This document shows positions 1 through 42,192 of a DNA stretch of 44,115 nt, one piece after another. Origin of the DNA: Oscillospiraceae bacterium. GTDB lineage: Bacteria; Bacillota; Clostridia; Oscillospirales; Acutalibacteraceae. The stretch spans positions 1-44,115 of the forward strand of contig DASRNG010000051.1 of NCBI GenBank assembly GCA_035647555.1, read 5' to 3'. Each line of letters begins with the position of its first letter. Position 1 is the first letter of the stretch. The notes under the pieces are model-generated. The model saw only the letters and a program-made list of their open reading frames with translations, ran no database searches and had not been told where the DNA came from. A program made the translations under genes and the position numbers.

Positions 1-1367
1 AGGGAGTATGAATCGTTACACTGCCCTGCATCAAGCACTCGTGGAATACCGCCAATGTCACCAAGATTAAGCTTGTTATAGCGGTATTTAGCACAGCCTG
101 CTGTTAAAATAACAGTATCAGTTGGTAAGGCTTTTGCAAAATTTGTGTAATATTCTCTGTTTCTCATTCTGCCGTCACACCCTGCCATGACGAAAAACTT
201 CTTAATAGCGCCAGACTTTACGGCATCTACTACCTTGTCTGCAAGTGCGAAAACTTGATTGTGAGCAAAGCCGCCTACAATGCTGCCTGTTTCAATCTCT
301 ACAGGTGAGGGGAGAGTTTTTGCAAGGCTTATGATTTCAGAAAAGTCTTTTTTACCGTCAGCGTCTGCTGCTATATGTATGCACCCTGGGTAGCCCGCAG
401 CGCCTGTTGTGAAAATTCTGTTTCTTATTTCATCACTTCTTGGCGGTACTATGCAGTTTGTTGTGAAAAGAATGGGTCCTTTGAAAGACTCAAAATCTGT
501 AAGCTGCTGCCACCACGCACCGCCATAGTTTCCTACAAGGTGCGGATATTTTTTAAGCTCTGGATAATAATGTGCAGGGAGCATTTCTCCATGGGTATAA
601 ACATCAACACCGCTGTCTTTAGTTTGTATGAGAAGCTGCTCTAAGTCAACTAAGTCGTGACCCGAAATTAAAATAGCGGGGTTTTCTTTAACGCCAATAT
701 TTACAGTTGTAATTTCAGGGTTACCGTATTTTGATGTATTAGCGCCATCAAGAAGAGCCATTGCTTTAACACCGTATTCGCCCGTTTTAAGAGTTAGCGC
801 TACTAGCTCATCTACAGAAAGTGTATCGTCAAGTGTTGCTGAAAGCGCCTCATAAATAAATGTGTAAACCTCAAAATCTTCTTTGCCAATGTTAAGGGCA
901 TGCTCTGCGTATGCCGCCATTCCTTTAAGTCCGTATATTATCATCTCACGAAGTGAGCGGATATCTTCATTCTCTGTTGCAAGAACACCAACTACAGCCG
1001 CCTTTTTATCCATTTCTTCAGGTGAGCTAACTGTGAAAACGGTGCTGTCATGCAAAGAGTTAATATTAGCAGAGTTTTTAAGTGCATCTCTTGCCTCTAA
1101 AATTTCTTTTATAGCTTTTGTGATAGCCTTACCGTCAAAGTTTGCGTTCGTTATAGTCATAAAAAGACCGCTTAAAACTTTGTAATTAACATCGCCAAGG
1201 TCTTTAGCATCAAGTTTACCTTTTACAACAACCTCTGAAAGCCCTTTTAATGAATAAATTAAAAGGTCCTGAAGTCTTGCAATATCATCTGTTTTACCAC
1301 ACACACCACGAACGGCACAGCCTTTACCTGCCGCCGTTTCTTGGCATTGAAAACAAAACATACTCAT
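1..1367 (-). CDS. hcp: Hybrid-cluster protein / hydroxylamine reductase (Hcp); C-terminal part runs off the left window edge
   Basis: Absent from the ORF track because it is open to the window edge. My minus-strand translation from ATG 1367 reads [25 protein letters not shown] (N-terminal Cys cluster typical of Hcp). It continues without a stop to ...[17 protein letters not shown] at position 1. AAGGAGG lies 6 nt upstream of the ATG. Confidence 0.85.
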
Positions 1368-1378
1368 TATAGTCCTCC

Positions 1379-1540
1379 TTATTCCACCACTTCAAAATCT
1401 TCTTTGCCAACAAAGCAAATAGGGCATTGCCAATCGTCAGGAATATCTTCAAACGCTGTTCCTGGCTCTATGCCACTATCAGGGTCACCGATTTCTGGGT
1501 CATAAATATAACCACAGGGAATGCAAATGTATTTTTTCAT
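1379..1540 (-). CDS. Rubredoxin (53 aa)
   Basis: Below the ORF-track size cutoff. Minus-strand translation is [53 protein letters not shown], with the two CxxC pairs (CIPC, CPIC) and the DDW motif of rubredoxins. GGAGGA RBS upstream. Its stop codon abuts the hcp RBS, so the two form an operon. Confidence 0.85.
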
Positions 1541-1572
1541 AAGAAATCCTCCTTTTAATGTTAATATAAAAA

Positions 1573-1587
1573 AGATACAAAGTATCT
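1573..1587. promoter_or_regulatory. Perfect 6-3-6 palindrome AGATAC-AAA-GTATCT in the rubredoxin-hcp leader; candidate operator or small leader hairpin
   Basis: Read directly. It lies 33-47 nt upstream of the rubredoxin start on the minus strand. Confidence 0.3.
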
Positions 1588-1645
1588 CTATTATCTAAGT
1601 TATTTTAGGTTTGTTAATATAATAACACAAACAAAACAAACCGAA

Positions 1646-1658
1646 TGTGACCAAGTCA
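1646..1658. promoter_or_regulatory. Perfect 5-3-5 palindrome GTGAC-CAA-GTCAC (context aaTGTGACcaaGTCACta); candidate Crp/Fnr-like (HcpR-type) site for rubredoxin-hcp
   Basis: Read directly, about 105 nt upstream of the rubredoxin start. It contains a TGTGA half-site, but the spacing is not the canonical N6. Confidence 0.3.
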
Positions 1659-1749
1659 CTAAAAATAAGTAAAAACCAGTTTCACGCTTGCTATTTGCTA
1701 TAGATTATAGTAGTATAAAAAAAGATTATGATAAAATAGGGGTATTGAG

Positions 1750-2733
1750 ATGAGTATAAAAATTGGCCTTTTTGGATATGGCAATATAGCAAAAGCCGCT
1801 GAAATCGGAATTGCACAAAACTCTGATATGAAGCTTTCCGCAGTTTTCACACGCAGAAATCCATCTGATATAAAAACTGTAACGGGAGCGCCTGTGTACA
1901 GAAAAGAAGATGCGCTAAACTTAACGGACAAAATAGATGTTATGCTAATGTGCGGCGGCAGCGCCTTAGACTTGCCGAAAGAATCCCCCGAAATGGCAAA
2001 GCATTTTAACATTGTAGACAGTTTTGACACTCACGCAAAAATCCCGCAGCACTTTATAAATGTGGACAAGTCTGCAAAAAAGAGTAAAAAGGTAGCAATA
2101 ATTTCTGCTGGGTGGGACCCTGGTGTGTTTTCACTCAATCGCCTTTTTTCTGAGGCGTTTTTGCCAAATGGCAAAGGGTACACATTTTGGGGCAGCGGTG
2201 TAAGCCAAGGCCATTCTGACGCTATTCGCCGTATAGAGGGTGTAAAAAAGGCCGTTCAGTACACAAACCCGTCGCAAGATGCATTAAGTGAGGTAAGAGG
2301 GGGAAACACTCCCGTATTTTTGCCCCGTGAAATGCATACTCGTAAATGTTTTGTAGTGCCAGAAAAGGGCGCTAATAAAGAGCTTATTGAAAGCACAATT
2401 AAAAGTATGCCAAATTATTTTGCGGATTATGATACAACCGTAAATTTTATAACGGAAGAAGAATTTGAAAAAGAGCATACCTTTATGCCGCACGGCGGAA
2501 CAGTTATAAGAAGTGGAACTACGGGCAGTAGTAACGAGAATAAACAAATTATTGAATATAGCATAAATCTTAGCTCAAACCCAGAGTTTACGGCAAATAT
2601 CTTGCTTTGCTATGCAAGGGCGGCATATAGGCTGCATAAAAATGGTGACAGCGGCTGTAAAACTGTGTTTGACATTGCGCCGTACCTACTTTTTAGAGGT
2701 ACTAAAGAAGATATTGTGAAAAGGCTTCTTTAA
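1750..2733 (+). CDS. ddh: meso-Diaminopimelate D-dehydrogenase
   Basis: 327 aa ORF. N-terminal Rossmann motif GLFGYGNIAK, then AGWDPG and GVSQGHSDA motifs typical of Ddh. AGGGG RBS. Confidence 0.8.
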   Translation: MSIKIGLFGYGNIAKAAEIGIAQNSDMKLSAVFTRRNPSDIKTVTGAPVYRKEDALNLTDKIDVMLMCGGSALDLPKESPEMAKHFNIVDSFDTHAKIPQHFINVDKSAKKSKKVAIISAGWDPGVFSLNRLFSEAFLPNGKGYTFWGSGVSQGHSDAIRRIEGVKKAVQYTNPSQDALSEVRGGNTPVFLPREMHTRKCFVVPEKGANKELIESTIKSMPNYFADYDTTVNFITEEEFEKEHTFMPHGGTVIRSGTTGSSNENKQIIEYSINLSSNPEFTANILLCYARAAYRLHKNGDSGCKTVFDIAPYLLFRGTKEDIVKRLL

Positions 2734-3446
2734 ATTTCATAGCCGCATTCAAGCATATCCTCTTTGAAAAAGTCAAAAAAGGAAGTTTTGTTATCAGTTT
2801 TATATCTTCCAACAGAGTCAGTTCTCATATGGATTTTTGCCATTGGCATAGAAAGAAAATCTTCAAGCTTTAAAAGCGTTTCATCTTGCTTAAATACCAT
2901 ATCTTCAAAGCGAAGTGAAAGCAAATGTTGGGGTGCTTTGGTAGCTTTCATAAGCTCTCTTTGATATTTCCAGCTAATTGCCCTTTTCTCACGAATATCA
3001 AAAGTTTCAGGGTATTTTATATTAAAATCATTAAGGTCATCAGTAACATGACCGCTCAAAATGCAGTCTCTCGGGTCCCTTACCCAATGAATACAGTATA
3101 TTTCAGGGAACATTTTCAGTATCCACGGGTAGCAAAGTGTGGTTTCTGGTATTTTCCACCCCTTATTTTCAGCTTTAGAGGATAGTACAGAGTGAAGATA
3201 TTCTTCAATAAGCCTTACAAAAACAGGGTCTGGCGTAGTGTCTATAACCTTTGAAAAGTCCCAGCTTAGTCCGCCTGTGTGTTTTACATAGCTGCCGAAA
3301 ACCCTGCAAGCCTCGTACATTTTTTCGGGCGGTATAAGGTCCCACGAGCCGTTTAATGGCTCACCCATATAAAAGCCGCTTTTAGATAGCGTTTCTGAAA
3401 TAGCACGTGTTCCAGAATGGCCCCTGCCTATTATCGTTACAAGCAT
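2730..3446 (-). CDS. PAPS-dependent sulfotransferase-fold protein (about 238 aa, no signal peptide or TM segment)
   Basis: N-terminal IIGRGHSGTR resembles the 5'-phosphosulfate-binding P-loop. WVRDPRDCILS resembles the 3'-phosphate-binding RDPxD...S motif. I chose the start at the internal ATG 3446 (MLVTIIGRG) because GGAGG lies 7 nt upstream. The track start at 3467 has no RBS. Confidence 0.65.
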   Translation of the reverse strand: MLVTIIGRGHSGTRAISETLSKSGFYMGEPLNGSWDLIPPEKMYEACRVFGSYVKHTGGLSWDFSKVIDTTPDPVFVRLIEEYLHSVLSSKAENKGWKIPETTLCYPWILKMFPEIYCIHWVRDPRDCILSGHVTDDLNDFNIKYPETFDIREKRAISWKYQRELMKATKAPQHLLSLRFEDMVFKQDETLLKLEDFLSMPMAKIHMRTDSVGRYKTDNKTSFFDFFKEDMLECGYEI

Positions 3447-3527
3447 AAAGTAACCTCCGTTTAACATTAGCTAATATTATCATTAATACCGCCTTATTGC
3501 AACAAAAAAACCGTTTTTGGGGGATTT

Positions 3528-4898
3528 ATGGACAATATTTTTAAGTTTACAAGTAAACACCAAACCCTAAGGCAAAGCGTACTTGGAAAAGGCGCTGTAA
3601 TTTGGTTTACGGGTCTATCAGGCTCTGGGAAATCGGCAGTAGCTTCAAGGCTTGAGAAAGAGCTTTTATCCAGCGGGATAAGGGCATACCTGCTTGACGG
3701 CGACAATGTAAGGCTTGGTCTTAATAGCGACCTTGATTTTAGTGCTAAGGGCAGAGCAGAAAATGTAAGAAGGCTTTACTGTGTGGCATCACTTTTTGCA
3801 AATAGCGGAACGACTGCGATAGTTAGCGCTATTTCTCCTTTTAATAAAGATAGAGAAATGGCAAAAGAGCATTGCCGAAAAAATGGCTGCACTTTTGTAG
3901 AAGTATTTGTAAAAACTCCGATAGAAGAATGCATAAAGCGTGATACAAAAGGGCTTTACGAAAGAGCTATTGCAGGCGAAATAAAAGACTTTACAGGCAT
4001 TTCATCTCCTTATGAAGAGCCTTTTAATCCTGATATTACTATAGAAACCTTAAAAACGCCTGCACAAAAGGCGGCAGAGGATATAGCAAAGTATGTAAAA
4101 GTTTTGCTGTCTATAAAAGAGATGACGGCATACATTTGTGAAACGGCAAAAGAGGCAGGCGAAAAAGTATTAGAGATATATGAAAAACATTTTGATGTAA
4201 CATATAAAGAGGATAATTCCCCTTTAACAAAGGCGGACTTAGCGGCAGAAAAGCTTATATGCAAAAGGCTTAAAGAGAAATATCCTGATATAGAAATTTT
4301 ATCAGAGGAAAGTACAGACGACCTAAAAAGGCTAAACCGCAACTGCTGTTTTATTGTAGACCCGCTTGACGGCACTAAGGAATTTATTAAAAGAAACGGC
4401 GAGTTTACTGTTAATATAGGCTTTTCGTATTTTGGTAAAAGCATTTTAGGGGTAGTTTATGCTCCTGTTTTAAGGCGGCTATTTTATGGCGCTTTTTATG
4501 AGGGGGCATATGAATATGATTTTTCTGGTGAGTATTTTAATGAAAATACGGCGATAAGGGTATCAGACAGAAAAGAAAATCTAAAGGTTTTAACGTCACG
4601 CTCACATCTCGATGAGAAAACTAAAGAATTACTTCAGAGAAATGCAAAGAAAATCGGAAGTACTATAGGTGCTGGCTCATCATTAAAAGGGTGCTTAATA
4701 GCCGCAGGAGAGGCAGACGTTTACTACCGCACGGGGTACACAATGGAGTGGGATACATGCGCTATGCAGTGCATAGTAGAGGAAGCGGGCGGCATATTTC
4801 TTGAGGGAGACGGCTCTATTATGAGGTATAATAGAGAGGATTCGCTTAATAAAAAAGGATTTTATATACTGAATAATATTGAAAATAAATTTATATAA
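3528..4898 (+). CDS. cysC-cysQ: Bifunctional fusion of adenylylsulfate (APS) kinase CysC (N-terminal, about aa 1-200) and 3'(2'),5'-bisphosphate nucleotidase CysQ (C-terminal, about aa 205-456)
   Basis: N-terminal half: P-loop GLSGSGKS (3612-3635), LDGDNVRLGLNSDLDFS and ISPF motifs of APS kinase. C-terminal half: LSEESTDD, VDPLDGTKEF and SSLKGCLIAAGEADVYYR...EWDTCA motifs, which match the CysQ branch of the inositol-monophosphatase family. Confidence 0.8.
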   Translation: MDNIFKFTSKHQTLRQSVLGKGAVIWFTGLSGSGKSAVASRLEKELLSSGIRAYLLDGDNVRLGLNSDLDFSAKGRAENVRRLYCVASLFANSGTTAIVSAISPFNKDREMAKEHCRKNGCTFVEVFVKTPIEECIKRDTKGLYERAIAGEIKDFTGISSPYEEPFNPDITIETLKTPAQKAAEDIAKYVKVLLSIKEMTAYICETAKEAGEKVLEIYEKHFDVTYKEDNSPLTKADLAAEKLICKRLKEKYPDIEILSEESTDDLKRLNRNCCFIVDPLDGTKEFIKRNGEFTVNIGFSYFGKSILGVVYAPVLRRLFYGAFYEGAYEYDFSGEYFNENTAIRVSDRKENLKVLTSRSHLDEKTKELLQRNAKKIGSTIGAGSSLKGCLIAAGEADVYYRTGYTMEWDTCAMQCIVEEAGGIFLEGDGSIMRYNREDSLNKKGFYILNNIENKFI

Positions 4899-4913
4899 AT
4901 AGGGGTAAAAAGC

Positions 4914-5795
4914 ATGACACATCTTGAAAGCCTTGAAAACAAAAGTATACATATATTAAGGGAGGCGTATAACCGCTTTCCTAATTTGTGTATGCTGTGG
5001 TCTATCGGTAAAGACTCTACTGTACTTTTAAGCCTCGCACGAAAAGCATTTTTTGGTCACGTTCCGTTTCCGCTTGTGCATATAGACACGCATTATAAAA
5101 TACCAGAAATGATAGTATACCGTGACACGCTTGCAAAAGAGTGGAATCTTGATATGATTTATGGCGAAAACACAAAGGCGCTTGAAGAAAAACAGACTTT
5201 TCCTGATGGCAATGTAACACGCATAGAGTGCTGTAAAAACTTAAAAACAAATGCGCTTAGAAATACTTTGTCAGGAGAATGGGATAGGTTTAGAATAAAT
5301 CACAGCACAGGAATTTATGAAGTGGATAAAAACACAGAGCCGTATACAGGTGTAATTGTAGGCATTCGTGCAGACGAGGAAGGCAGCCGCTCAAAAGAGC
5401 GTTATTTCTCCCCTCGTGACAGAAACAATGATTGGGATGTTGGGGACCAGCCGCCAGAGTTTTGGGGTCAGTATAAAACAGATTTTAAGCCCGGCACGCA
5501 TATACGTGTTCACCCCTTGCTTGACTGGACAGAGCTTGATGTTTGGGAGTATATAGAAAAAGAGGGCGTTCCCGTTGTTTCTTTATACTTTAATCAGGGT
5601 GACGGCAAGCGTTACCGCTCTCTTGGGTGCTTTCCTTGCACAACTCCTGTAGAGTCTGAGGCTAAGAATATCAAAGAGATAATAGAGGAGCTAAAAACAG
5701 GTAAATTTTCAAATATTGCCGAGCGTTCTGGCAGAGAGCAAGATAAAGAGGACGGCGGAGGGCTTGAGGAGCTAAGAAGAGGCGGCTATATGTAG
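4914..5795 (+). CDS. cysD: Sulfate adenylyltransferase subunit 2
   Basis: 293 aa. PP-loop-like [11 protein letters not shown], plus the GIRADEE and [15 protein letters not shown] motifs of CysD. Confidence 0.85.
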
Positions 5796-5839
5796 CTAAA
5801 ACCTAAAAATAGGGGCTTTGAAAGGGCGTTTTTATAGAT

Positions 5840-7624
5840 ATGCAAAACAGGGAAATGAATATTGTAATAGTGGGGCACGTGGACCATGGTAAAAGCACAG
5901 TAATAGGCAGACTTCTTGCAGATACTAACTCGCTCCCTAAAGGCAAGCTTGAAGCAGTTAGAGAGCTTTGCCGCAGAACAGACAAACCGTTTGAATATGC
6001 GTTTTTGCTTGATGCCTTAAAAGACGAGCGCTCACAAGGCATAACGATTGATGCAGCACGCTGCTTTTTTAAGACGAAAAAAAGAAAGTACATCATAATT
6101 GATGCACCAGGGCATATAGAGTTTCTTAAAAACATGATAACGGGAGCGTCCCACGCGGATGCGGCACTTCTTGTTATAGATGCAAATGAGGGAATCAGTG
6201 AAAACTCACGACGCCATGGGTATATGCTGTCAATGCTTGGCATAAAGCAGGTTGCCGTTCTTGTTAATAAATTAGACCTTTTTGAAATACAAGAGCGAAA
6301 AAAGGTGTATGACAATGTGGTGAAAGACTTTACAGAGTTTTTAAGCAAAGTTGACATTTTAGCATCATGCTATATCCCTATAAGTGCAGTGCAAGGCGAA
6401 AACATAGCATTTTATGGCAAAAGTATGCCGTGGTACAAGGGCGAAACGGTACTGCAAACGCTTGATAGTTTTAATCACTCAGAAAAAGCAGACGGTTTGC
6501 CATTTCGCATGTGGGTGCAAGATGTGTATAAATTTACAGCAGGAAATGATGACAGGCGAATAATTGCAGGAACAGTATCATCAGGAGTTTTGAGTACTGG
6601 TGACGAGATTATGCTTTTACCGTCTGGTAAAAAAACATTTGTAAAATCAATAGAGACATTTAATGAAAGCCCAAAAACGAGTGTTTCATCAGGCTGTGCG
6701 GCAGGCTTTTGCATGAGCGAGCAAATATATGCTAAAAGAGGCGAGCTGATAACAAAAATAGGTGAAAGCGCACCTCTTACGGGCAGTAGAATAAAAGCGT
6801 CTGTTTTTTGGCTTGGTAAAGAGCCGCTAACACAGGGAAAGACATATAACCTTAAAATCGGCACTTTTCAGGTGGGCTGTGAAATCGAAAAGATTCTTGG
6901 CGTTCTCAATGCCTCTACACTTGAAAACAGCAAGAAAACAAAAGCAAACCGCCACGAGGTGGCACAGTGCATTTTGCATTTGCACCGCCCCGCGGCGTTT
7001 GACATTGCAAGCGGTGTTTCTGAAACAGAGCGTTTTGTTATCGTGGACGACTACGAGATTTCGGGCGGCGGAATTATAACAGAGCTTTTAGGAAGTGAAG
7101 AGCTAAGCGGCAAGCTGAATATAAGAAACATAAAATGGCATAAAAGCAGCATAACTTTAGCGCAAAGGGAGAAGTATTATAACCAAAAAGCGCAAATGAT
7201 TTTAATAACAGGCACTACGGCAGTTGATAAAAAGGCGGTCGCAAGAACTTTAGAGAAAATGCTGCTTGAAGATGGTAAAATCGCTTATTATATGGGTATA
7301 GGAAATATGCTTTACGGCGTAAATGCCGATATTAAAAGTGACGGCTCTATGCTTTTACCAAAAGAGCGGGAAGAGCATATAAGGCGGCTTGGAGAGCTTT
7401 GCAATATTATTCTTGATGCAGGTAATATCCTTGTTGTAACGGCAAGCGATTTAATGCCAAATGAGCTTGACACCTTGCGCACAATCATTCGCACAGACGA
7501 GATACTTACCGTTTGGATAGGCACCCCAAAAAAACGTGCAAAAGACTTTGATATGTACTTCAAGGAAAATGAAGACATAGCAAAAAGCCTTTTACAGTTT
7601 GTTAAGGAAACGAATATAACTTAA
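5840..7624 (+). CDS. cysN: Sulfate adenylyltransferase subunit 1 (GTPase) with a degenerate C-terminal APS-kinase-like domain
   Basis: G1 [10 protein letters not shown]3 DAPGH, G4 NKLD. The C-terminal roughly 140 aa align to APS kinase, but the P-loop is GTTAVDKK (7211-7234) and LDGDN is MGIGN (7292-7306). An alternative start at ATG 5855 is possible. Confidence 0.8.
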
Positions 7625-7636
7625 AATTAAAAAAGT

Positions 7637-7680
7637 GAACCGCCAACCTTAAAAACTAAAGATTTGGCGGTTCGTTTATT
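7637..7680. terminator. Bidirectional rho-independent terminator shared by cysN (+) and the ABC-2 permease (-)
   Basis: 10-bp perfect stem GAACCGCCAA (7637-7646) / TTGGCGGTTC (7664-7673) with T-rich tracts on both sides. Confidence 0.7.
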
Positions 7681-7686
7681 GTTATT

Positions 7687-8574
7687 TTATGCCGTCATTC
7701 GTTTTTTAAGTATACGGCTTGATGCCACAAGGCACAGCAGCGCAAATACGCCGCTTGCTAAAAGTAGTATCCACAGAGGGATATCTAGCCCTAAAAAGCC
7801 AATATTTCCTGCTGAGAAATAACCGTCTATAACTATTTCCTTTAATTCTCCCGTGATATTTAGCTGAGCGCTGGCATCTGAAAGCAAAATGTTTTTTATC
7901 CAGACGGTAAGATGCGAAAATGGAAGCAAAGAACCTACTTTTTTTGTAGCTTCCCCAAGGCTTGAATATGGCATATAAATTCCGCTTAAAAAACCAACAA
8001 ATGTTCCGGCAACACCACTTATTACTCCGATTGCCGCAGAGGACTTTACAAGCGATGTTATAAGCAGCATTAGCGCTGCACTTATAAACGAGGCGGCAAA
8101 AAGTGAGCCTGCTGTAAGAATAAAGACTTTTAATGAAATCCAATACGTTGTTAAAAACCCAATTAGCAGAAAGCTTATAATCCATGAAAACAAATTTAGT
8201 ATAAAAGAGATAAGAAAGCCAGCGGCAAAATAAGAGATTAAAATTTCATGGACTCTTGCGGGGGTAAGCAGGAAACTATCCACACGGCGGTTTTCAAAAT
8301 CTTTTGCAATGGTTCCAAACGCTCCTGTTGAAAGGGACATGGAGTTTAGTATCATCACACCCGCTATCATTTGCAGGTATATAAGAAAGTTGCTGCCAGA
8401 CTCCGAGAGTAAACCACCCATTTCACCGAGCAAAGCATCTGAATATGTTTTTGCGATAAACAGAAGATAAAGCCCCACGAGTATAAGCGTACTTAAAAGT
8501 GAAAAGAAAACGGTAGCTCTGTCACGCAGAAAAAGCTTAATGTTGCGTTTTGTTAAAGCGGTAATATGAATCAC
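7687..8574 (-). CDS. ABC-2 type transporter permease
   Basis: 295 aa hydrophobic protein with about 6 predicted TM segments. Its start immediately follows the ATPase stop (8575/8574). Confidence 0.7.
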   Translation of the reverse strand: MIHITALTKRNIKLFLRDRATVFFSLLSTLILVGLYLLFIAKTYSDALLGEMGGLLSESGSNFLIYLQMIAGVMILNSMSLSTGAFGTIAKDFENRRVDSFLLTPARVHEILISYFAAGFLISFILNLFSWIISFLLIGFLTTYWISLKVFILTAGSLFAASFISAALMLLITSLVKSSAAIGVISGVAGTFVGFLSGIYMPYSSLGEATKKVGSLLPFSHLTVWIKNILLSDASAQLNITGELKEIVIDGYFSAGNIGFLGLDIPLWILLLASGVFALLCLVASSRILKKRMTA

Positions 8575-9510
8575 TTATAAACCCTCCCCAATATGCTCAC
8601 CCGTAGCGTTTAGAAAAACATCATCCATTGAGCCTTTTAGCACCTCAAAAAAGCGTATATCACTCTTAAAAAAGTTGATAAGCTCTATAATTTCGTCTGT
8701 GCTGTCGCAGGTGATTGTGTAAGTGTCGGCAGTCTTTTTAAGCTTTACTCCTTTTTCCTGTGCCCTTTTTTCAAAGCTTCTTGCTTCTTTAGGTGTAATG
8801 ACAAGACGGTCAAAAGAATAACGTGATTTTAACTCTGCAGGGCTTGCGGCACACACTTTTTTGCCTTGATGGATAATGACAACATAGTCGGCATTTGCGG
8901 TTTCCTCCATGTAATGAGTTGTTAAAAATAATGTCATACCCGTCGCTTTACGAATGGAATGAAGAATATCCCAAACCTCGGCTCTCGTTTTCGGGTCAAG
9001 CCCCGTGGTAGGTTCGTCAAGAAAAAGAATTTCGGGAGAGGTGAAAAGCGCCCGTGCGATTTCCACTTTTCTTTTTTGACCGCCCGAAAGAGTTTTAATA
9101 CGTTTTTTATAGAAATCATCAATATGCAAAAGAGAAATGATTTCATTACAGCGCTTTTTTACGGCCTTTCTGTCAGGCATATAAAGAGCGCCGTAAACGA
9201 GCAGATTTTCTTCAACTGTGAGCAGCTCATCAAAAATATTGTTTTGAAAAACAACGCCGATTTTATTCTTGAAGGATATAACATTTTCTTTGCCGTTATA
9301 TAAAACCGCTCCGCTGTCTTTTTCTAGCAGCCCAACTAGCATATTTATTGTAGTAGTTTTTCCTGCACCATTCTGCCCTAAAAAGGCGAAAAGGCTACCT
9401 TTAGGCACAGAAAAGCTCAGCGAGTCTACCGCCTTTTTACCGCCGAAGGCTTTCGACAAGTTTTCAACTGTAATAACGGGTTTGCTGTCTAAAATGAGGC
9501 TCAAAGACAT
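8575..9510 (-). CDS. ABC transporter ATP-binding protein (DrrA/CcmA-like exporter type)
   Basis: Walker A GQNGAGKTT, signature LSGGQKRK, Walker B ILFLDEPTTGLD. AAAGGAGAG RBS. Confidence 0.85.
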   Translation of the reverse strand: MSLSLILDSKPVITVENLSKAFGGKKAVDSLSFSVPKGSLFAFLGQNGAGKTTTINMLVGLLEKDSGAVLYNGKENVISFKNKIGVVFQNNIFDELLTVEENLLVYGALYMPDRKAVKKRCNEIISLLHIDDFYKKRIKTLSGGQKRKVEIARALFTSPEILFLDEPTTGLDPKTRAEVWDILHSIRKATGMTLFLTTHYMEETANADYVVIIHQGKKVCAASPAELKSRYSFDRLVITPKEARSFEKRAQEKGVKLKKTADTYTITCDSTDEIIELINFFKSDIRFFEVLKGSMDDVFLNATGEHIGEGL

Positions 9511-9537
9511 CTCTCCTTTGTAAAATTAAAATATAAG

Positions 9538-9552
9538 ACAATGTATCATTGT
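9538..9552. promoter_or_regulatory. Perfect 6-3-6 palindrome ACAATG-TAT-CATTGT, 28-42 nt upstream of the ABC ATPase start; candidate operator in the exporter promoter
   Basis: Read directly. On the minus strand it sits just upstream of a TATATT -10-like hexamer. Confidence 0.35.
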
Positions 9553-9673
9553 GGAAATGGTAGTTGAAAGGTATTTATAAATGGTATAGAAGCTATAAAA
9601 CCAACAAAAAATCACCTTATAGGTATATATTAAAGCAAGTGAAAAGATTTTACAATATTTTTCTTATATTACC

Positions 9674-9702
9674 TTGAATTGTTTTCGTGTATGCAGTACA
9701 AT
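9674..9702 (+). promoter_or_regulatory. SigA-type promoter for the 9738-16252 operon
   Basis: TTGAAT (9674-9679), 17-nt spacer, TACAAT (9697-9702). It lies 36 nt upstream of the first ATG. Confidence 0.5.
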
Positions 9703-9737
9703 AAAATAAATATTTACTGGTGAAGGACGGGTATCTA

Positions 9738-10535
9738 ATGATAAAACTTGGTGTCAACAGTGTTCTGTTCAAGCGTTTTTCATTTCGTGAGGCGGCAGAG
9801 ATTATAAGCAGGTGCGGTTATGATGGTGTTGAAATTTCTGCTATTGAGGGTATGTGCGAACACCTTGCCCTAACTAAGTATAAAACGCAAAAAACAGAAC
9901 TTCTTTCTATTTCTAAGGAGTATAATCTTCCGTTTCTTTCTACAGAAGTTGCAAGCCTTGATAGAGAGAGAATGCTGCTTGCGTTTGAGGCTTGCAGCGA
10001 GCTGTCTATTCCTGTAGCGAATATCGGCTCTGGTGGAAAGTCGGGTGATGAAGAATCTTTTAAAAAGGCTATGGAAACTATATCTATTTTAGCAAATGAT
10101 GCTGAAAGTTTTGGCATAACACTTTGTGTAAAAGCGCACGTGGGCGCAGCAGTACACAATACAGAAACAACACTTCGTATGGTAAAGGAAGTAAATTCTA
10201 ACTCCCTTGGGGTAGATATGGACCCTAGCCACATTCACAGAGCAGGTGAAAACCCAGCAAAAGAGCTTCCTAAAGTTATAGATTATATAAGGCATATACA
10301 TATAAGAGACTGCCTTGGCACGGGGCCTTCCCCGGGCGAGCCGTCTTTTCAGGCATGCGGCAGGGGAGACATTGACCTTTATGGTTACTGCAAGGCAATG
10401 GTAAGTGCAAATTATAACGGTCCTGTCTGCCTTGAAGTTATAGGGGCTGACCAAAGCCTTGAAAGTGCAGCCATAATAGCGGCGGAAAGCTATGGTTACA
10501 TAAATGCCTGCCTTAAAAGGCTTGGCGCAAGATAG
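9738..10535 (+). CDS. Sugar phosphate isomerase/epimerase, xylose-isomerase-like TIM barrel (IolE/IolI-like family)
   Basis: GYDGVEIS near the N-terminus, and the DMDPSHIHRAG and HIHIRD metal-ligand-type motifs of the AP_endonuc_2 fold. I chose the start at ATG 9738 (MIKLGVNS) rather than GTG 9720. Confidence 0.65.
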   Translation: MIKLGVNSVLFKRFSFREAAEIISRCGYDGVEISAIEGMCEHLALTKYKTQKTELLSISKEYNLPFLSTEVASLDRERMLLAFEACSELSIPVANIGSGGKSGDEESFKKAMETISILANDAESFGITLCVKAHVGAAVHNTETTLRMVKEVNSNSLGVDMDPSHIHRAGENPAKELPKVIDYIRHIHIRDCLGTGPSPGEPSFQACGRGDIDLYGYCKAMVSANYNGPVCLEVIGADQSLESAAIIAAESYGYINACLKRLGAR

Positions 10536-10570
10536 ATAAATCTTAAATAAAAAAGAATGGATTGATATTA

Positions 10571-11935
10571 ATGAAAAAAAGTCCTAATATTTTATTTTTC
10601 GGCATCGACAGTTTAAGAAGTGACCATATGAGTCTATACGGTTATGATAGGCTAACCACACCGCATATTGATAAATATATAAACGAGTGCGGCATTGTAT
10701 TTGAGAATATGTTTAGTCCCTCTGTTCCTACTACCCCTGGCTATGCTTCAATGCTAACGGGGTTTGACTGCTTTGGTACAGACTGTGTGGCGCTTCGCCA
10801 CAAGGGGCAGCTGCTCAGTAGTATCAAAACACTTCCAGAGGTGCTTCGTGAAAATGGGTACACATCTACCTGCATAGGTTTTAGCGGTAACGCTGGCTCA
10901 AGAGGGTTTGATAACTACTTATCCTATGGCGATTGGGAGCCTAATAAAGCAGAAAATATGAATGACGTTGCGCTACCTGAGCTTGAAAGGCTTGTAAAGC
11001 AAGATAAGCCGTGGCTAATGTTTATGCGCCATATGGACCCGCACAGCCCGTATTATGCACCACGCCCGTTTGATAGGCTGTTTTATAGCGAAGATGAGTT
11101 TGACCCAAACAACAAATCTTTGCAGCCTGTATATGACTTTAAGCCGTTTTGCGATTATTTTAAGTCTTGGTTTCCTGATGGCTGTACTGATGCACAGTAT
11201 ATTATAGCGCAGTATGACGGTGCTGTAGCTTATATGGACGCTTGCATAAATCAAATTTTAGAAAAGCTTTACACCCTTGGCGTAGAAGATGACACGATTG
11301 TTATTTTCACCTCTGACCACGGCGAAACGCTTGACGAGCATGACTGTTATTTTGACCATCATTCACTTTATGATAACGTACTAGTCGTTCCTTTCGCATT
11401 TCGTTATAATAAATTTGAGTACGCAGGAAGACTTTCAGACTATTGCCAAGTAAAAGATATTATGCCAACGATTTTATCCCTTTGCGGTATAGATAGCGGT
11501 ATAAAGTTTGACGGCATAGATATGACAAAGGCTATTACAGGTGAGGGCATAAAACAAGAAAGCGAAATGTACATAACAGAGGCCACATGGATGAGAAAGC
11601 ACGGCTGGCGTACACCTGAATGGAAGCTTATGATAGCGCTTGAGCCAGACTTTCACTACAAACCTGAAATAGAGCTTTATAACCTGATAGATGACCCTAA
11701 AGAGCTTCACAATATAGCAGACAAAGAGCCAAATGTTGTAGAGTTCTTAAAAACGAGAATGGAAGAACATATAAGCAAAAGAGAGAAAGAAACAGGCAGA
11801 CCGAACCCAATGTATACAAACCTTGACTGGAGCGGGTTTGGCAGGCCTTTCGAGTCGTCAGACGAGGCATATAACACACTTTATATAGGCAGTTCTACCA
11901 CGGCGAAAAAACTTCAGTCAAAATCTAAGGATTAA
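10571..11935 (+). CDS. Sulfatase-fold (alkaline-phosphatase superfamily) hydrolase/transferase with a Thr at the nucleophile position; cytoplasmic
   Basis: NILFFGIDSLRSDH, TTPGYASMLTG (10730 onward) and FTSDHGE motifs. It has no signal peptide and no C/S-x-P-x-R box. Confidence 0.7.
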   Translation: MKKSPNILFFGIDSLRSDHMSLYGYDRLTTPHIDKYINECGIVFENMFSPSVPTTPGYASMLTGFDCFGTDCVALRHKGQLLSSIKTLPEVLRENGYTSTCIGFSGNAGSRGFDNYLSYGDWEPNKAENMNDVALPELERLVKQDKPWLMFMRHMDPHSPYYAPRPFDRLFYSEDEFDPNNKSLQPVYDFKPFCDYFKSWFPDGCTDAQYIIAQYDGAVAYMDACINQILEKLYTLGVEDDTIVIFTSDHGETLDEHDCYFDHHSLYDNVLVVPFAFRYNKFEYAGRLSDYCQVKDIMPTILSLCGIDSGIKFDGIDMTKAITGEGIKQESEMYITEATWMRKHGWRTPEWKLMIALEPDFHYKPEIELYNLIDDPKELHNIADKEPNVVEFLKTRMEEHISKREKETGRPNPMYTNLDWSGFGRPFESSDEAYNTLYIGSSTTAKKLQSKSKD

Positions 11936-11956
11936 AAACGGAAGGAAGCGAAAAAC

Positions 11957-12967
11957 ATGCAGCGGTGCTGTGTTATTGGCATGGGTCACATAGGAAACAT
12001 ACACGCAAGGGCATATAAAGAGTGTGAAAAAGCCACTCTTGTTGGAGTGTGTGACAAAATAGAGGAAAGGGCAAAAAGTGCGGGAGAAAAGTTTGGTGTA
12101 CCGTATTTTTTAAGCGCCCGTGAAATGCTCCGTGCGTTAAAGCCTGATATTTGCAGCGTTTCTACAGGTGGATTTGAGTATGCGAGTGACCACTTCGAGC
12201 CTACTATAGAAGCTTTAGAATTTGGCTGCCATGTGCTTGGGGAAAAGCCTATAAGCAATAATTTAATAGAGGCACAAAAGATGGTGGATACGGCAGAAAA
12301 GCTTAACCTTTGCTATGGGATAGACCTTAACCACCGCTTTACGCCTGCTGCAAGGCAGGCTAAAAGGTGGCAAGAGGAGGGCAGAATAGGCGAGTTGCTT
12401 TTTTGCAACATGGCTTTATGGATAGGCAGAGATGACCCGCTGGATACGCCGTATTACCACCTAAAGGCATTAAATCCCCACAGCGTAAACATTATGCAGT
12501 ACTTTTGCGGCCCTGTTAAAGAGGTGTCCTGCTTTGCGCTTAAAGCCTTGGGCCGGCAAATTTATTCAACGGCATCTGTAAATATGCGGTTTTCATGTGG
12601 TGCGGTGGGGCATCTTACAAGCTCTTATGATATTAAACGAGGCCACCCAATGGAGCGGTGCGAAGTTGCGGGAGTAAACGGCAGATTTATATTTGAGGAT
12701 ATGTGGCGAGAGGCAACGCTTTACCCCGCCGAGTCGTGGATTAAAGAAGTTTATACAAACCCTGTTTTTGGAGGGTTTGAAGGTTTTTATGATACATTTA
12801 GAGATAGAATTCACAGTTTTGTAAATCAAGTAGAAGAAGGTATAGAGCCTAAAGACATTGACGGCAGCGCAAAAGAGGGGCTTGAGGCATCAAGAGTTAT
12901 ACATGCCGCTATAAAGTCAATTAAAGAAAATGGCGCTGTAATTAATGTTGCAGATATAAAAGAATAA
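11957..12967 (+). CDS. Gfo/Idh/MocA family NAD(P)-dependent oxidoreductase
   Basis: N-terminal Rossmann motif IGMGHIGNIH and the GEKP motif (HVLGEKPIS) typical of the family. Confidence 0.75.
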   Translation: MQRCCVIGMGHIGNIHARAYKECEKATLVGVCDKIEERAKSAGEKFGVPYFLSAREMLRALKPDICSVSTGGFEYASDHFEPTIEALEFGCHVLGEKPISNNLIEAQKMVDTAEKLNLCYGIDLNHRFTPAARQAKRWQEEGRIGELLFCNMALWIGRDDPLDTPYYHLKALNPHSVNIMQYFCGPVKEVSCFALKALGRQIYSTASVNMRFSCGAVGHLTSSYDIKRGHPMERCEVAGVNGRFIFEDMWREATLYPAESWIKEVYTNPVFGGFEGFYDTFRDRIHSFVNQVEEGIEPKDIDGSAKEGLEASRVIHAAIKSIKENGAVINVADIKE

Positions 12968-12999
12968 AATTTGTGCAAAGCACAGAAAGGGTTGTAAAT

Positions 13000-14088
13000 A
13001 TGCCAAAAGCACCTTTAAAAGTTGGAGTCGTTGGAATGGGCGGCATAGGGAATACTCATGCAAAATGTTATAGCGAGAATAAGCTGTCGCAGCTAATATG
13101 CGTGTGCGACCTGAAAAAAGACAGAGCAGACAAGGCGGCGGAAAAGTATGGAGTCCCTGCATTTTATAGTCTTAGTGAAATGCTAAATGCATATCCAGAG
13201 CTTGATATTGTAGACGTTTGCACAAGCGGATTTGAAAATGGAAGTTGGCACTATGAGCCTGTTATGGAGGCGCTTGATGCAGGAAAGCACGTTTTAACTG
13301 AAAAGCCAATTTCAAACGATATATTTGAAGCGAGAGATATGGTAAACTTTGCGGCAAAGAAAAATCTTTATCTTGGCTGCAACCTTAACCACTTCTTTTC
13401 AGAGCCAGCAGACAGGGCAAGAGAATACATTGCAAATGATAAAATAGGTGAGCAAATTTATTGTATAAACAAGGTGGGTTTTAACGGAAGTTCAGTAAAC
13501 CCTTTGGCGATAGATAAGAATTCACGCTGGCAAATGCCGTACTCACACGCAAAAGCATTTCTAACGCACCCATTTTCTGTTATGCGCCACTTTTGTGGTG
13601 ATGTTACGCACATACAAGCGTTTATGGATAGACCTGGCGCCCGCAAACAGTCAGGCGACCTTATGCTTTCGGTACAAAGTATACATATGAAATTTCAAAA
13701 TGGGTGTATGGGATATTTGCTTTCACAAAGGGGCGATGCCTGTTTTGGGCTTGGCGGTTGGTGGAGTTTTGAGCTTGCAGGTACTAAGGGCACATTTTGC
13801 ATAGAGGACTGTGTTGACAAAATAACGTATTGGGAGCATGAAAAAGAGCCTGTTATAAACAGCACAGGTATTACAGACTTTGGTGCAACATTCCCTATTA
13901 GAATAAATGCTTTTCTTGAAGATGTTATAAACGGCGTTCCACGAGAGCATTTAAGGGCAAACGGGAGAGATGCGCTCGCTACTATGGAGTATATTTTTGC
14001 AGCGATTGACTCTTTTGAGTCTGGCGGCGAAATTGTTCGCCCGCACGCACTTCCCCCTTATCATGGTGACAGCAGCATTATAAAATAA
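13000..14088 (+). CDS. Gfo/Idh/MocA family NAD(P)-dependent oxidoreductase (second copy, diverged)
   Basis: VGVVGMGGIGNTH and HVLTEKPIS motifs. I chose the start at ATG 13000 (MPKAPLKVG) rather than GTG 12973. Confidence 0.75.
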   Translation: MPKAPLKVGVVGMGGIGNTHAKCYSENKLSQLICVCDLKKDRADKAAEKYGVPAFYSLSEMLNAYPELDIVDVCTSGFENGSWHYEPVMEALDAGKHVLTEKPISNDIFEARDMVNFAAKKNLYLGCNLNHFFSEPADRAREYIANDKIGEQIYCINKVGFNGSSVNPLAIDKNSRWQMPYSHAKAFLTHPFSVMRHFCGDVTHIQAFMDRPGARKQSGDLMLSVQSIHMKFQNGCMGYLLSQRGDACFGLGGWWSFELAGTKGTFCIEDCVDKITYWEHEKEPVINSTGITDFGATFPIRINAFLEDVINGVPREHLRANGRDALATMEYIFAAIDSFESGGEIVRPHALPPYHGDSSIIK

Positions 14089-14109
14089 AGCTGTGAAAGG
14101 CTAAGAGTT

Positions 14110-15324
14110 ATGAAGCATTCTCCCTATTTTGATATGGAAAGCAGAAAATTTACAGCACAAGGTGTTCGGTATATTGCGGACACCTTTAAAAGCTTTGATA
14201 AAAAGGGTATAAACGAATGTGATACGGCAGAATATTTAAGAAAAGTTCTTTCAAAGTTTTCAGACAGTGCCTCTTTAGAAGATGTGGCATATTGCCCTAT
14301 GGCAGATAAAGCGGCGTATACTATTCCGGCGGCAATTATGATATTCTGCTCACTTTTGTTTTTTATAACACGGTTTTCAAACTCGCTTGCCTTTCCGTTT
14401 ACGGCACTTCTTCTTTGCCTTGCTGCACTTTCTTGGTTTGTTTACGGTTTTATATTTGGCAAGCCAGCGGCAAACTTTCTTTTGAAAAGAGTAAAAGGGC
14501 GCAATGTAGTAGCAGTGAGAAAGCCATATGCCAGAACCAATAAAAGAGTGATAATTTGTGCAAATATAGACAGAGCGTATGAATACCGCTATGCAATGGG
14601 GTTTTCTCCAAAAACCCTTTTGGGGTTTACGGTTTTATTTGCTGCTGCTATGGTAATGTCGCTGTTAATTTTTATTTTTTATATTGCAGCTTTGCCTGAG
14701 GTCGGTGCAGTTTGGCAAAAAGTTGCTACTATACAATTGGTGTTTAATATTTTTTATATTCCTGCTCTTTTCTTTTTCTCAAATAAAAGCACAAGAGGAG
14801 CGGCGCACAATTTATCTGCCGTATATGCAGCAATAGGAATTATGAAGGAGCTTTCTGATAGCCATTACCGCTATAGTGATACAGAGGTTATCTGCCTTTT
14901 AACGACGGCTAAAAATGCAGGTCAAAAGGGTGCTGCGGCATATATTAAAAGGAATATACACGAGCTTAAAAAAACAGATACTACGGTAATTGTTTTAGAG
15001 TCACTTTGTAATACTGATGAAATTTCTATTGCTAATAGAGATGAATCAGGGCTTTTGAAAACTTCTGGCGAATTAAATGCACTAATGGAGTTATCCGCCA
15101 GCAGTATCGGCATAAAAACAGTAAAATCGCCTATAAAAATAGGCAGTACAGATGCTGTAAAATTTATTCACAGCGGAATACAGTCTGTAATAATTAGAGC
15201 GGCAGGTAAAAACAGAAAACAGCTTTATCCTACTCGATTTGATGACACAAAAGCGGTAAATAGCGAGTGCATAGAAAGTGTCATGAAAATGGTTATAGAG
15301 GGAGTAAATCTTTTAGCAGAATAA
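14110..15324 (+). CDS. Polytopic membrane protein with M28-peptidase-like motif order but substituted metal ligands (putative pseudo-peptidase)
   Basis: The motif series GRNVVAV...VIICANID, GAAHNLSAVYAAIGIMKEL, LLTTAKNAGQKGAAAY, VLESLCN and GSTDAVKF follows the M28 order (HxD, GAxDNxSG, EE, D, SDH), but the ligand positions are changed. Hydrophobic TM blocks lie before and between these motifs. Confidence 0.35.
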   Translation: MKHSPYFDMESRKFTAQGVRYIADTFKSFDKKGINECDTAEYLRKVLSKFSDSASLEDVAYCPMADKAAYTIPAAIMIFCSLLFFITRFSNSLAFPFTALLLCLAALSWFVYGFIFGKPAANFLLKRVKGRNVVAVRKPYARTNKRVIICANIDRAYEYRYAMGFSPKTLLGFTVLFAAAMVMSLLIFIFYIAALPEVGAVWQKVATIQLVFNIFYIPALFFFSNKSTRGAAHNLSAVYAAIGIMKELSDSHYRYSDTEVICLLTTAKNAGQKGAAAYIKRNIHELKKTDTTVIVLESLCNTDEISIANRDESGLLKTSGELNALMELSASSIGIKTVKSPIKIGSTDAVKFIHSGIQSVIIRAAGKNRKQLYPTRFDDTKAVNSECIESVMKMVIEGVNLLAE

Positions 15325-15397
15325 ATTTTACTAAAACACTTAATAAACCAACCTAAATAGGCAAGAATAAAAGCAAATGGTATAAAGGGTTGGTTTA

Positions 15398-16252: not shown

Positions 16253-16332
16253 CATCGCCATAAAAATATGATATATTTAACGATATGAGCCACATTTTGC
16301 GTGGCTTAACTTAATTTAGGAGTTATTGTTAA

Positions 16333-16965: not shown

Positions 16966-16973
16966 CGAAAAGA

Positions 16974-18053: not shown

Positions 18054-18147
18054 AATATCACCTCAATACTTATTGCCCTACTATAATATGTGGAAAAAGC
18101 AGCGGTGACACAAATTCATAAAATAGCTATGATACAAACCTTGGCTA

Positions 18148-18176
18148 ATTGCAAAAATAGTTTGGTTGTACTATAA
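18148..18176 (+). promoter_or_regulatory. Near-consensus SigA promoter for the PHP-domain gene
   Basis: TTGCAA (18148-18153), 17-nt spacer, TATAAT (18171-18176). Confidence 0.6.
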
Positions 18177-18208
18177 TAATTAAGTATAATTATAAAAGGA
18201 GAAATTTG

Positions 18209-20657: not shown

Positions 20658-20678
20658 AAAATGACCGCCTAATACAAA

Positions 20679-29253: not shown

Positions 29254-29265
29254 ATCCATCTCCTT

Positions 29266-32154: not shown

Positions 32155-32158
32155 ACTT

Positions 32159-41986: not shown

Positions 41987-42192
41987 ATCTTTCGTCCTTT
42001 CATATTCGAGGTACAAAAAATAATATACAATATATTGTCGTTATTTGCAATAGCAATATCTTAAACATATTATCATTTATAATGTTGATAAGATAGAAAA
42101 AAGTGATATAATAAGAATATGTAATTAAAAAATGAGAAAATGTGCATTTTTTGTTTTATATTAAAATAATAATTTCGCTAGGAGGGTCTTAT

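Follow-up and report, generated by a model that had tools for sequence, protein, structure and literature searches.

A conserved family of predicted PAPS-type sulfotransferases paired with a PAPS-synthesis operon and a carbohydrate/cyclitol-type enzyme module in Clostridia

We analyzed a 44,115-nucleotide (nt) stretch of DNA from an Oscillospiraceae bacterium (GenBank assembly GCA_035647555.1, contig DASRNG010000051.1; hereafter termed the window), which encodes at positions 2730–3446 a predicted sulfotransferase (SULT) of the type that uses 3′-phosphoadenosine 5′-phosphosulfate (PAPS) as the sulfuryl donor. The SULT gene is divergent from an operon encoding the enzymes for PAPS synthesis and for removal of the by-product 3′-phosphoadenosine 5′-phosphate (PAP), and a set of four genes whose homologs adjoin SULT in several other phyla is located farther downstream, at 9720–14088. 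The reading we favor, with moderate confidence, is that SULT and its operon constitute a dedicated sulfation cassette serving this carbohydrate/cyclitol-type module. Synteny strongly argues that PAPS is made here for sulfuryl transfer; the acceptor is probably a sugar, uronate or cyclitol.

A predicted PAPS-type sulfotransferase

The initial annotation of this DNA, made from the sequence alone, had described a 238-amino acid (aa) open reading frame (ORF) with PAPS-binding motifs, and the motif positions, Pfam, a structural model and Foldseek all agree with it. The ORF lies on the minus strand and runs from an ATG at 3446 to a stop codon at 2730, with a GGAGG sequence 7 nt 5′ of the ATG. In the AlphaFold2 model, which has a mean predicted local distance difference test score (pLDDT) of 92.2 and a predicted template-modeling score of 0.88, the 5′-phosphosulfate-binding loop GRGHSGTR (residues 7–14) comes after strand E2-6, and the 3′-phosphate-binding motif RDPRDCILS occupies residues 123–131. 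Both motifs are near-invariant in an alignment of 24 homologs, from which the model was built as well; Asp36, Lys98, Glu101 and His133, which are invariant in the same alignment, are candidate catalytic residues. The protein scores 45.1 bits against Pfam Sulfotransfer_3 (cut-off 27) and 23.3 bits against Sulfotransfer_1 (cut-off 22). Strand 1 and the P-loop are situated at the very N-terminus, neither a signal peptide nor a membrane segment is seen in the sequence or the model, and the enzyme is predicted to be cytoplasmic.

Comparison of the model against the PDB via Foldseek revealed 22 matches at E ≤ 1e-3, each of them a PAPS sulfotransferase or an enzyme of the sulfotransferase fold; they include 3rnl, TPST1/2, the sulfotransferase domains of CurM and olefin synthase (OLS), cytosolic SULTs, heparan 3-OST and retinol dehydratase. 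The match probabilities range from 0.97 to 1.0 and the template-modeling (TM) scores are modest (0.33–0.60); SULT is thus a divergent member of the fold. A single-sequence search against the PDB gave nothing meaningful, sulfotransferases being reached only via the family profile and the fold search, and NCBIfam holds no model for SULT. In the family-profile alignment, the RDPRD..S stretch is aligned with the 3′-phosphate-binding segment RDGRASVHS of TPST1. TPST1 and TPST2 rank high among both the structural and the profile matches, and SULT might on that account sulfate protein tyrosines, as RaxST and TPST do. However, these matches are weak (TM-score about 0.54; 16–20 bits) and are explained by the common PAPS-binding core, and the conserved neighbors include neither secretion genes nor a candidate for a peptide substrate, which makes tyrosine sulfation highly improbable. 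On the basis of sequence and model, we assign the product of 2730–3446 to the PAPS-type sulfotransferases.

Homologs of SULT are widespread. We found 3164 of them in a collection of 5.8 billion proteins, and an exhaustive profile search yielded 1923 clusters (50% identity) with E ≤ 1e-3, 150 of which have E ≤ 1e-30. When GTDB was scanned with one genome for each species, at least 544 species were seen to carry the family, which spreads across many phyla at identities of at least 57%. It extends into environmental phyla, from soil, sediment, digesters and termite gut. Gene neighborhoods were compared in the best 80 of these at least 544 species genomes with 10-kb flanks (loci and contigs are designated L001 and so on). 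In this sample, the closest carriers are uncultured Clostridia of anaerobic digesters; the SULT and CysD of 'Clostridiales bacterium AS15tlH2ME_110' (L001) are 90% and 94% identical to those of the window, respectively. For high-GC loci the ORF-based clustering was noisy, and the non-core neighbors include genes that Pfam identifies as unrelated, encoding GNAT, DNA methylase, Rnf and MgtE proteins (L102, L129, L098, clusters c30 and c162, and others).

The divergent PAPS operon and its conservation

An 81-nt control region (3447–3527) separates SULT from three plus-strand genes. The first of them (3528–4898) encodes a CysC–CysQ fusion, composed of an adenosine 5′-phosphosulfate (APS) kinase domain at residues 21–172 and a 3′(2′),5′-bisphosphate nucleotidase domain at residues 197–446 (Pfam APS_kinase 200 bits and Inositol_P 175 bits). 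The CysC domain scores 207 bits on TIGR00455 (cut-off 139) and has an intact P-loop, GLSGSGKS; the CysQ domain matches TIGR01331 over residues 201–446 with 240.4 bits (cut-off 228.8). The second gene (4914–5795) encodes CysD, the small subunit of sulfate adenylyltransferase (NF003587 348 bits, cut-off 195; Pfam PAPS_reduct 138 bits), and the third (5840–7624) the GTPase subunit CysN, whose GTPase domain is intact by Pfam (GTP_EFTU 156 bits) and whose TIGR02034 score of 330 bits falls marginally below the cut-off of 336.1. CysN ends in an APS-kinase-like tail of about 150 residues (approximately residues 428–571; APS_kinase 34.6 bits). Compared with the active CysC domain of the window, GLSGSGKS is replaced in this tail by GTTAVDKK and DGD by GIG. 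Judging from these losses, the tail is a catalytically dead pseudokinase with at most a structural role, leaving CysC–CysQ as the sole kinase of the cassette.

The fusion of kinase and nucleotidase is common in metagenome-assembled genomes (MAGs) of Clostridia. At least 120 clusters have it, with identities reaching down to 48%, and both domains are present in all of the 120 best. In the source databases these clusters are named CysQ, adenylyl-sulfate kinase, inositol monophosphatase or hypothetical protein, never fusion, and a literature search found no paper on a CysC–CysQ fusion.

Alignment of the spacer from the window with those of four species-level relatives revealed two conserved blocks, TATCATT and TTGCAACAnAAAAA. 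On the minus strand these blocks read TTGCAA-17 nt-TAATAT, a candidate promoter 5′ of SULT; a simple consensus scan for promoters did not pick out any site in this region. No structured RNA was matched when Rfam was scanned over the whole window, and therefore no riboswitch is recognized upstream of SULT or the cys operon. At the other end, the operon is closed by an intrinsic terminator on the plus strand (7633–7690), which consists of a 14-bp GC-rich hairpin followed by a U-rich tail. The hairpin, at about 7633–7677, has a folding energy of −19.1 kcal/mol and a z-score of −3.96, and none of 200 shuffled sequences folds as well. The consensus scan missed this terminator because its loop is long, and folding confirmed the hairpin. 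The layout given in the initial annotation, namely a shared region of 81 nt, a fused cysC–cysQ followed by cysD and cysN, a pseudokinase tail on CysN and a strong terminator, is in full agreement with these coordinates, scores and motif losses.

This layout is also conserved. Among the 80 species genomes, 29 have cys genes within 10 kb of SULT; of the 28 closest ones (SULT identity at least 69%), 22 share the divergent SULT and cysCQ–cysD–cysN unit. The same unit is present in another member of the Clostridia, L086, and, complete with the CysN tail, on two long contigs, L167 and L168, with CysC–CysQ identities of 51% and 53%, respectively, and of 51%–54% across the three loci. In other phyla, cysD and cysNC sit inside the SULT gene cluster itself (L082, L137, L153 and L156). 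Such recurrence indicates that the pairing of SULT with a PAPS operon is not accidental.

We scanned every ORF of at least 150 aa in the window with Pfam and NCBIfam (shorter ORFs were scanned in 1–12000 only). Among those of at least 150 aa, we detected no PAPS or APS reductase besides the PAPS_reduct-family CysD, no sulfite reductase and no cysteine synthase, and likewise no permease of the SulP, CysZ, TauE or CysPUWA type, in line with the initial annotation. An FAD protein at 42142–43662 was considered as AprA and rejected, as it is NadB (L-aspartate oxidase). Within 10 kb of the Pfam-annotated cys loci L082, L086, L167 and L168, neither a second PAPS_reduct gene nor a sulfite reductase gene was found. 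Since the synteny of SULT and the cys genes is conserved without reductive genes nearby, the production of PAPS for sulfuryl transfer is well supported. The initial annotation had drawn the same conclusion from the fusion of CysQ to the kinase, next to a sulfotransferase gene and with no reductive genes. The conclusion stands by virtue of synteny and not of the fusion, for PAPS reductase also releases PAP and CysDN, CysC and CysQ are the same enzymes as in assimilation, so that the fusion alone cannot distinguish sulfuryl transfer from assimilation.

On that shared enzymology, the operon could alternatively serve assimilatory sulfate activation for cysteine, with CysH and sulfite reductase encoded elsewhere and SULT being an incidental or minor consumer of PAPS. 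That PAPS reductase yields PAP is established knowledge, and the scan covers the 44-kb window of the genome. An assimilatory operon nevertheless fits poorly with a divergent SULT–cysCQDN arrangement that is kept in many species down to 51% CysC–CysQ identity, with the placing of cysD and cysNC inside the SULT module of other phyla, and with reductive genes being absent both from the annotated 10-kb surroundings and, as far as cysH, sir and cysK are concerned, from the window. We therefore consider assimilation an improbable explanation.

Three side observations concern the surroundings of the cassette. In L018–L020, a clade with an unfused CysC, a TauE/SafE-family anion permease gene directly adjoins cysN (for example, L019 5632–6417); it could encode a sulfate transporter and has no counterpart in the window. 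In L007, L008, L012, L013, L050 and L086 (8308–8979 in the last), a gene for a PHP-domain phosphoesterase (about 225 aa) stands between cysN and the TIM-barrel gene, and the window has a PHP protein at 18206–18952. Enzymes of the PHP family can be pAp phosphatases, and by analogy this protein may provide a second route of PAP removal. In addition, tandem arrays of about nine paralogous DUF6120/HAAS proteins of about 135 aa lie beside the SULT cassette in Acutalibacteraceae MAGs (L168 4914–8873, L022 6058–9602, and L027).

The partner module and the putative acceptor

The initial annotation had termed the sulfation genes stand-alone and their acceptor unknown. This description no longer holds, given that the most widely conserved partners of SULT are encoded in the window itself, at 9720–14088 on the plus strand, starting 2 kb beyond cysN. 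The first module gene (9720–10535) encodes a xylose-isomerase-like TIM-barrel enzyme (AP_endonuc_2 85 bits). Its family profile has as best solved relatives Bacillus subtilis IolI (45 bits over the full length), 3tva (45 bits), MJ1311, IolE and AsbF; the NCBIfam model of IolE gives 38 bits (cut-off 290). The second (10562–11935) encodes a sulfatase-family protein without the formylglycine motif, hereafter SulfL (Pfam Sulfatase 148 bits). Two GFO/IDH/MocA oxidoreductases follow, GFO a (11957–12967) and GFO b (12973–14088), both assigned by Pfam. The profile of GFO a, whose counterpart lies directly 3′ of SULT in other phyla, matches over its full length the inositol dehydrogenases TM0414 of Thermotoga maritima (3ezy, 105 bits) and then 3cea, 4hkt and 4n54, the profile relatives including myo- and scyllo-inositol dehydrogenases. 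IolG (TIGR04380, cut-off 355) is the second-best NCBIfam model for GFO a (95 bits) and the top one for GFO b (85 bits). No IolB, IolC, IolD or IolJ is present.

SulfL differs from the sulfatases at the formylglycine position. Its Thr57 aligns with the formylglycine cysteine of arylsulfatase 6hhm, with T-T-P-G-Y in place of C-x-P-x-R. This threonine is invariant across the aligned orthologs, in which the motif varies only as PT[TPS][PS][GA]Y. With the C/S-x-P-x-R signature replaced in this way, SulfL cannot form formylglycine, and we do not file it as a formylglycine sulfatase despite the Pfam match. Canonical CxPxR sulfatase paralogs occur in the SulfL operon of L017–L020, L100, L106, L152 and L157, the one of L019 (17232–18635) standing at the operon end. 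As such paralogs share operons with SulfL, threonine at the formylglycine site is a defining trait of the SulfL group and not drift; by the same token, a true sulfatase and a PAPS sulfotransferase coexist in one locus. An AlphaFold2 model of SulfL (pLDDT 69.8, active-site loops below 50) was set aside and used neither for fold nor for active-site claims.

The association of the module with SULT was seen in two independent samples. In the SULT-centered sample, at least one of the TIM-barrel, SulfL and GFO genes lies within 10 kb of SULT in 20–24 of the 80 genomes, and the SulfL gene does so in 24. The second sample comprised 80 metagenome contigs centered on SulfL; 60 of them encode the TIM-barrel enzyme, 55 the cognate GFO, 24 SULT, mostly directly 3′ of the SulfL gene, and 6–11 cys genes. 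These counts are lower bounds, because many of the contigs are short. The link is most striking in the most distant genomes, those of Armatimonadota, Chloroflexota, Omnitrophota, 'Hebobacteria' and Deinococcota, whose SULT is 57%–62% identical to that of the window; at least in the first four of these groups, TIM-barrel, SulfL, SULT and GFO genes are contiguous in this order. L082 carries an AraC regulator gene and, in one string, TIM–GFO–GFO–SulfL–SULT–GFO–(rhaM)–CysD–CysNC, with a gap of 11 nt between SulfL and SULT. The layout of the window recurs in L086, where SULT and the divergent CysCQ–CysD–CysN operon are followed by two unrelated genes and then by TIM–SulfL–GFO–GFO. The GFO pair is likewise kept in L017–L020, L085 and many metagenome loci. 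The module is kept as a unit in at least eight phyla, and in many of these SULT is embedded in it. Between phyla, the four module proteins are about 57%–65% identical, against 28%–39% for CysD, which suggests that the module has spread laterally as a unit under strong constraint.

Three further genes continue in the direction of the module (14110–16965, plus strand), encoding an M28-like protein, a 284-aa protein without a family match and a HAD phosphatase; their membership is uncertain, as the order recurs in L085 and is seen neither in L086 nor in other phyla. L085 matches the window order from 9720 to 18952, with the M28-like, 284-aa, HAD and PHP genes included, and the SULT cassette of this MAG is on contig L003.

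Gene context and domain fusions both bear on the acceptor. Around the module, AraC regulators occur at 15 of 86 loci, a second TIM barrel at 10 and CUT1 sugar-ABC permeases at about six, and the neighbors at module or SULT loci include GH38, GH18, GH31, GH29, GH130, RhaA and FGGY kinases. Of the 80 SULT loci, about 8 have GH38 homologs; those of L009, L010, L026, L062 and L080 adjoin SULT or lie one gene away. The window itself has a gene for a 1055-aa GH38 alpha-mannosidase at 26092–29259. In a Lentisphaeria locus (L076, 4745–7321), SULT is in frame with a domain resembling CE15 glucuronoyl esterases, and an independent fusion of the same kind, P0362, has 670 aa, is 51% identical to the window SULT and scores 113 bits on GCE_fung. 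In farther relatives of SULT, the fusion partner is a GT61, GT4, TPR or methyltransferase domain. As a separate observation, L047 (10001–12622) and L049 have a free-standing CE15-like gene two genes 3′ of SULT, after a TIM-barrel gene, and a gene for an anSME-like radical SAM/SPASM protein upstream.

Given the module context, the Iol-like relatives and the CE15 and GT fusions, the acceptor of SULT is probably a sugar, uronate or cyclitol rather than a steroid, phenol or lipid, an assignment of class that draws on gene context and weak homology. By another account, the cassette would be a self-contained device for conjugating an exogenous lipid, steroid, phenol or hydroxy fatty acid, with the TIM-barrel, SulfL and GFO genes being unrelated to it. 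The gene logic matches that of BT_0411–BT_0416 of Bacteroides thetaiotaomicron (PMC9417993), hydroxy fatty acids are sulfated by gut Clostridia (PMC13449962), no module accompanies the cassette in L167 and L168, and genes for an ABC-2 exporter lie adjacent in the window. Yet the fatty-acid enzyme ErSULT is Stf1-like (PMC13449962), whereas Stf1 ranks only 31st, with a TM-score of 0.48, among the Foldseek matches of the window SULT; the exporter is confined to two close relatives; and environmental phyla embed SULT in a sugar-type module, with fusions to carbohydrate-active domains. Conjugation of this kind is unlikely in our judgment.

The ABC-2 exporter pair (7687–9510, minus strand; Pfam ABC2_membrane and ABC_tran) consists of a permease (7687–8574) and a DrrA/NodI-like ATPase (8575–9510). 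It is convergent with cysN, shares the hairpin terminator with it, and among the relatives accompanies SULT only in L002 and L004, both of them close; it may be an accessory outside the core. The ATPase scores 246 bits on the DrrA model TIGR01188 and 175 bits on the NodI model, which would suit a SULT that sulfates a glycan or cell-envelope glycopolymer for ABC-2 export, as in rhizobial NodPQ/NodH/NodIJ. The GT4 and GT61 fusions of farther family members point the same way, as does the presence among the top structural neighbors of TPST and heparan 3-OST, both acting on macromolecules. On the other hand, the window has no glycosyltransferase, flippase or polymerase gene near SULT, the partners kept across genomes are soluble enzymes of a kind that acts on small molecules, and the exporter is not conserved with SULT. 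Such a role appears rather unlikely.

On these grounds we propose a putative model for the cassette in the service of the module. Initially, CysD and CysN would form APS from sulfate, ATP and GTP, and the CysC domain would phosphorylate APS to PAPS. SULT would then catalyze the PAPS-dependent O-sulfation of a small molecule, most likely a sugar, uronate or cyclitol intermediate of the TIM/SulfL/GFO module. Meanwhile, the fused CysQ domain would convert PAP to AMP at its source, easing product inhibition of both the transferase and the kinase. The module served by the cassette would be a soluble, laterally spread one, comprising a TIM-barrel enzyme of isomerase or lyase type, two IolG-like NAD(P) oxidoreductases and SulfL with its threonine nucleophile. 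SulfL most likely acts on the sulfate ester made by SULT. A reversed, ATP-yielding role, from sulfate ester via PAPS to ATP, was rejected on established biochemistry: CysDN is driven by GTP, CysQ destroys PAP, and the energetics of alkyl sulfates as donors are unfavorable.

In a stronger form of the model, sulfation would be an obligatory step of a widely transferred, AraC-regulated pathway for a sugar, uronate or cyclitol, SulfL using the ester made on an intermediate of the Iol-like enzymes, and the CysC–CysQ fusion would sustain a high flux of PAPS. To SulfL, the sulfate might be a leaving group (in elimination, inversion or anhydro-ring formation) or a transient handle hydrolyzed later, or it might be relayed via Thr-O-sulfate. 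The AraC regulators, sugar importers and lateral spread do look catabolic. We hold this version as a tentative possibility only. If true, obligatory sulfation would mean that central carbohydrate metabolism uses PAPS in a way not described before, and that the sulfatase fold includes a new type of catalysis.

Several points weigh against a dedicated cassette in the service of the module. PAPS costs about 3–4 ATP equivalents per transfer, which makes bulk catabolism implausible for a fermenter. The likeness of the module proteins to Iol enzymes is far under the family cut-offs. Several well-flanked SulfL loci are without SULT, the association being frequent and not obligatory, and in a clade of rumen and gut Oscillospiraceae with 63%–69% identity, both the cys genes and the module are missing from the 10 kb around SULT. 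The window encodes no recognizable sulfate importer, and with the reductive-gene scan reaching over 44 kb of the genome, a cysH elsewhere would be outside its view. Finally, a literature search found no paper on the SULT family, the SulfL family or the module, and no characterized member.

Elsewhere in the window (19017–22830), genes for a PAS–GGDEF–hemerythrin protein, a P-II-domain protein and a cation/proton antiporter of fused UmpA/UmpB-like type (DUF1538) lie one after another. Neither Pfam nor NCBIfam gave a match for three ORFs of 323, 311 and 284 aa (31183–33094 and, for the last, 15398–16252); the 284-aa ORF is kept in L085 in the same place, after the M28-like gene.

Comparison with known systems

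A sulfotransferase with a private PAPS supply is an already known arrangement, other examples being NodPQ/NodH, mycobacterial Stf0 with CysDNC, and RaxPQ/RaxST. New here are a widespread, highly conserved and uncharacterized SULT family, the combination of CysC–CysQ with a pseudokinase-tailed CysN, and the coupling to SulfL and Iol-like enzymes. The linkage of SULT, SulfL and the Iol-like enzymes offers a clonable system of four to seven genes. In plant-biomass and gut ecosystems, the substrate of SULT could lead to a sulfated metabolite, or to a sulfate-dependent reaction, not seen before. The CysC–CysQ fusion provides a testable case of donor synthesis coupled to by-product removal. Annotation pipelines miss such loci, because their genes are labeled 'sulfatase' and 'CysQ'.

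Rhizobial NodP/NodQ is a second, dedicated copy of CysD/CysN(-CysC) that feeds the carbohydrate sulfotransferase NodH, which acts on a lipochitooligosaccharide produced by neighboring Nod enzymes, and the kinase of NodQ is active. The window resembles the NodPQ/NodH/NodIJ system in its CysD/CysN supply for SULT and in the nearby ABC-2 exporter with its NodI-model score of 175 bits. Unlike NodQ, the kinase tail of the window CysN is predicted to be dead, a separate CysC–CysQ is present, and no Nod-type biosynthetic genes accompany it.

SulfL shares the fold and the Pfam family of the S1 sulfatases, such as 6hhm and choline sulfatase, and keeps their DS..R.D, PH.P and SDHGE stretches; it departs from them in the invariant threonine at the formylglycine position. 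In the alkaline-phosphatase superfamily, threonine nucleophiles are typical of NPP, EptA and LtaS, which transfer phosphoryl or phosphoalcohol groups. As for the GFO and TIM-barrel enzymes, IolG, IolI and IolE are their best solved or curated relatives, although the scores stay far below the cut-offs.

Bacterial sulfation of small molecules has been mapped only recently, with BT_0416 in 2022 (PMC9417993) and ErSULT in 2026 (PMC13449962). ErSULT of Eubacterium ramulus is a Stf1-like hydroxy fatty acid sulfotransferase that is PAPS-dependent in vitro (PMC13449962). ErSULT, whose activity is known in vitro, is a Sulfotransfer_3-type enzyme of gut Clostridia, and the window SULT is of the Sulfotransfer_3 type as well. 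Compared by description, they differ in that the window SULT best matches 3rnl, TPST and the sulfotransferase domain of CurM, with Stf1 at rank 31 and a TM-score of 0.48, and in that neither a PAPS operon nor a sugar module is described for ErSULT (PMC13449962).

In the BT_0411–BT_0416 locus of B. thetaiotaomicron, PAPS biosynthesis genes adjoin that of the cholesterol sulfotransferase BT_0416, and BT_0412 is a proposed sulfate importer (PMC9417993). The initial annotation had likened the window to this steroid locus. The likeness holds for the gene logic: in both, a cytoplasmic PAPS sulfotransferase is encoded beside PAPS-making genes, and sulfate would be activated for transfer and not for reduction. 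It does not extend to a steroid-type acceptor, since gene neighborhoods and fused domains favor a carbohydrate or cyclitol. The window locus further differs in belonging to another phylum, in its divergent SULT, its fused CysC–CysQ and the dead tail of its CysN, and in lacking an adjacent sulfate importer, the ABC-2 exporter being the sole transporter recognized in the locus. Finally, whereas BT_0416, here compared by description only, is flanked by genes for PAPS supply, the partners of the window SULT also include sugar/cyclitol-type enzymes and SulfL.

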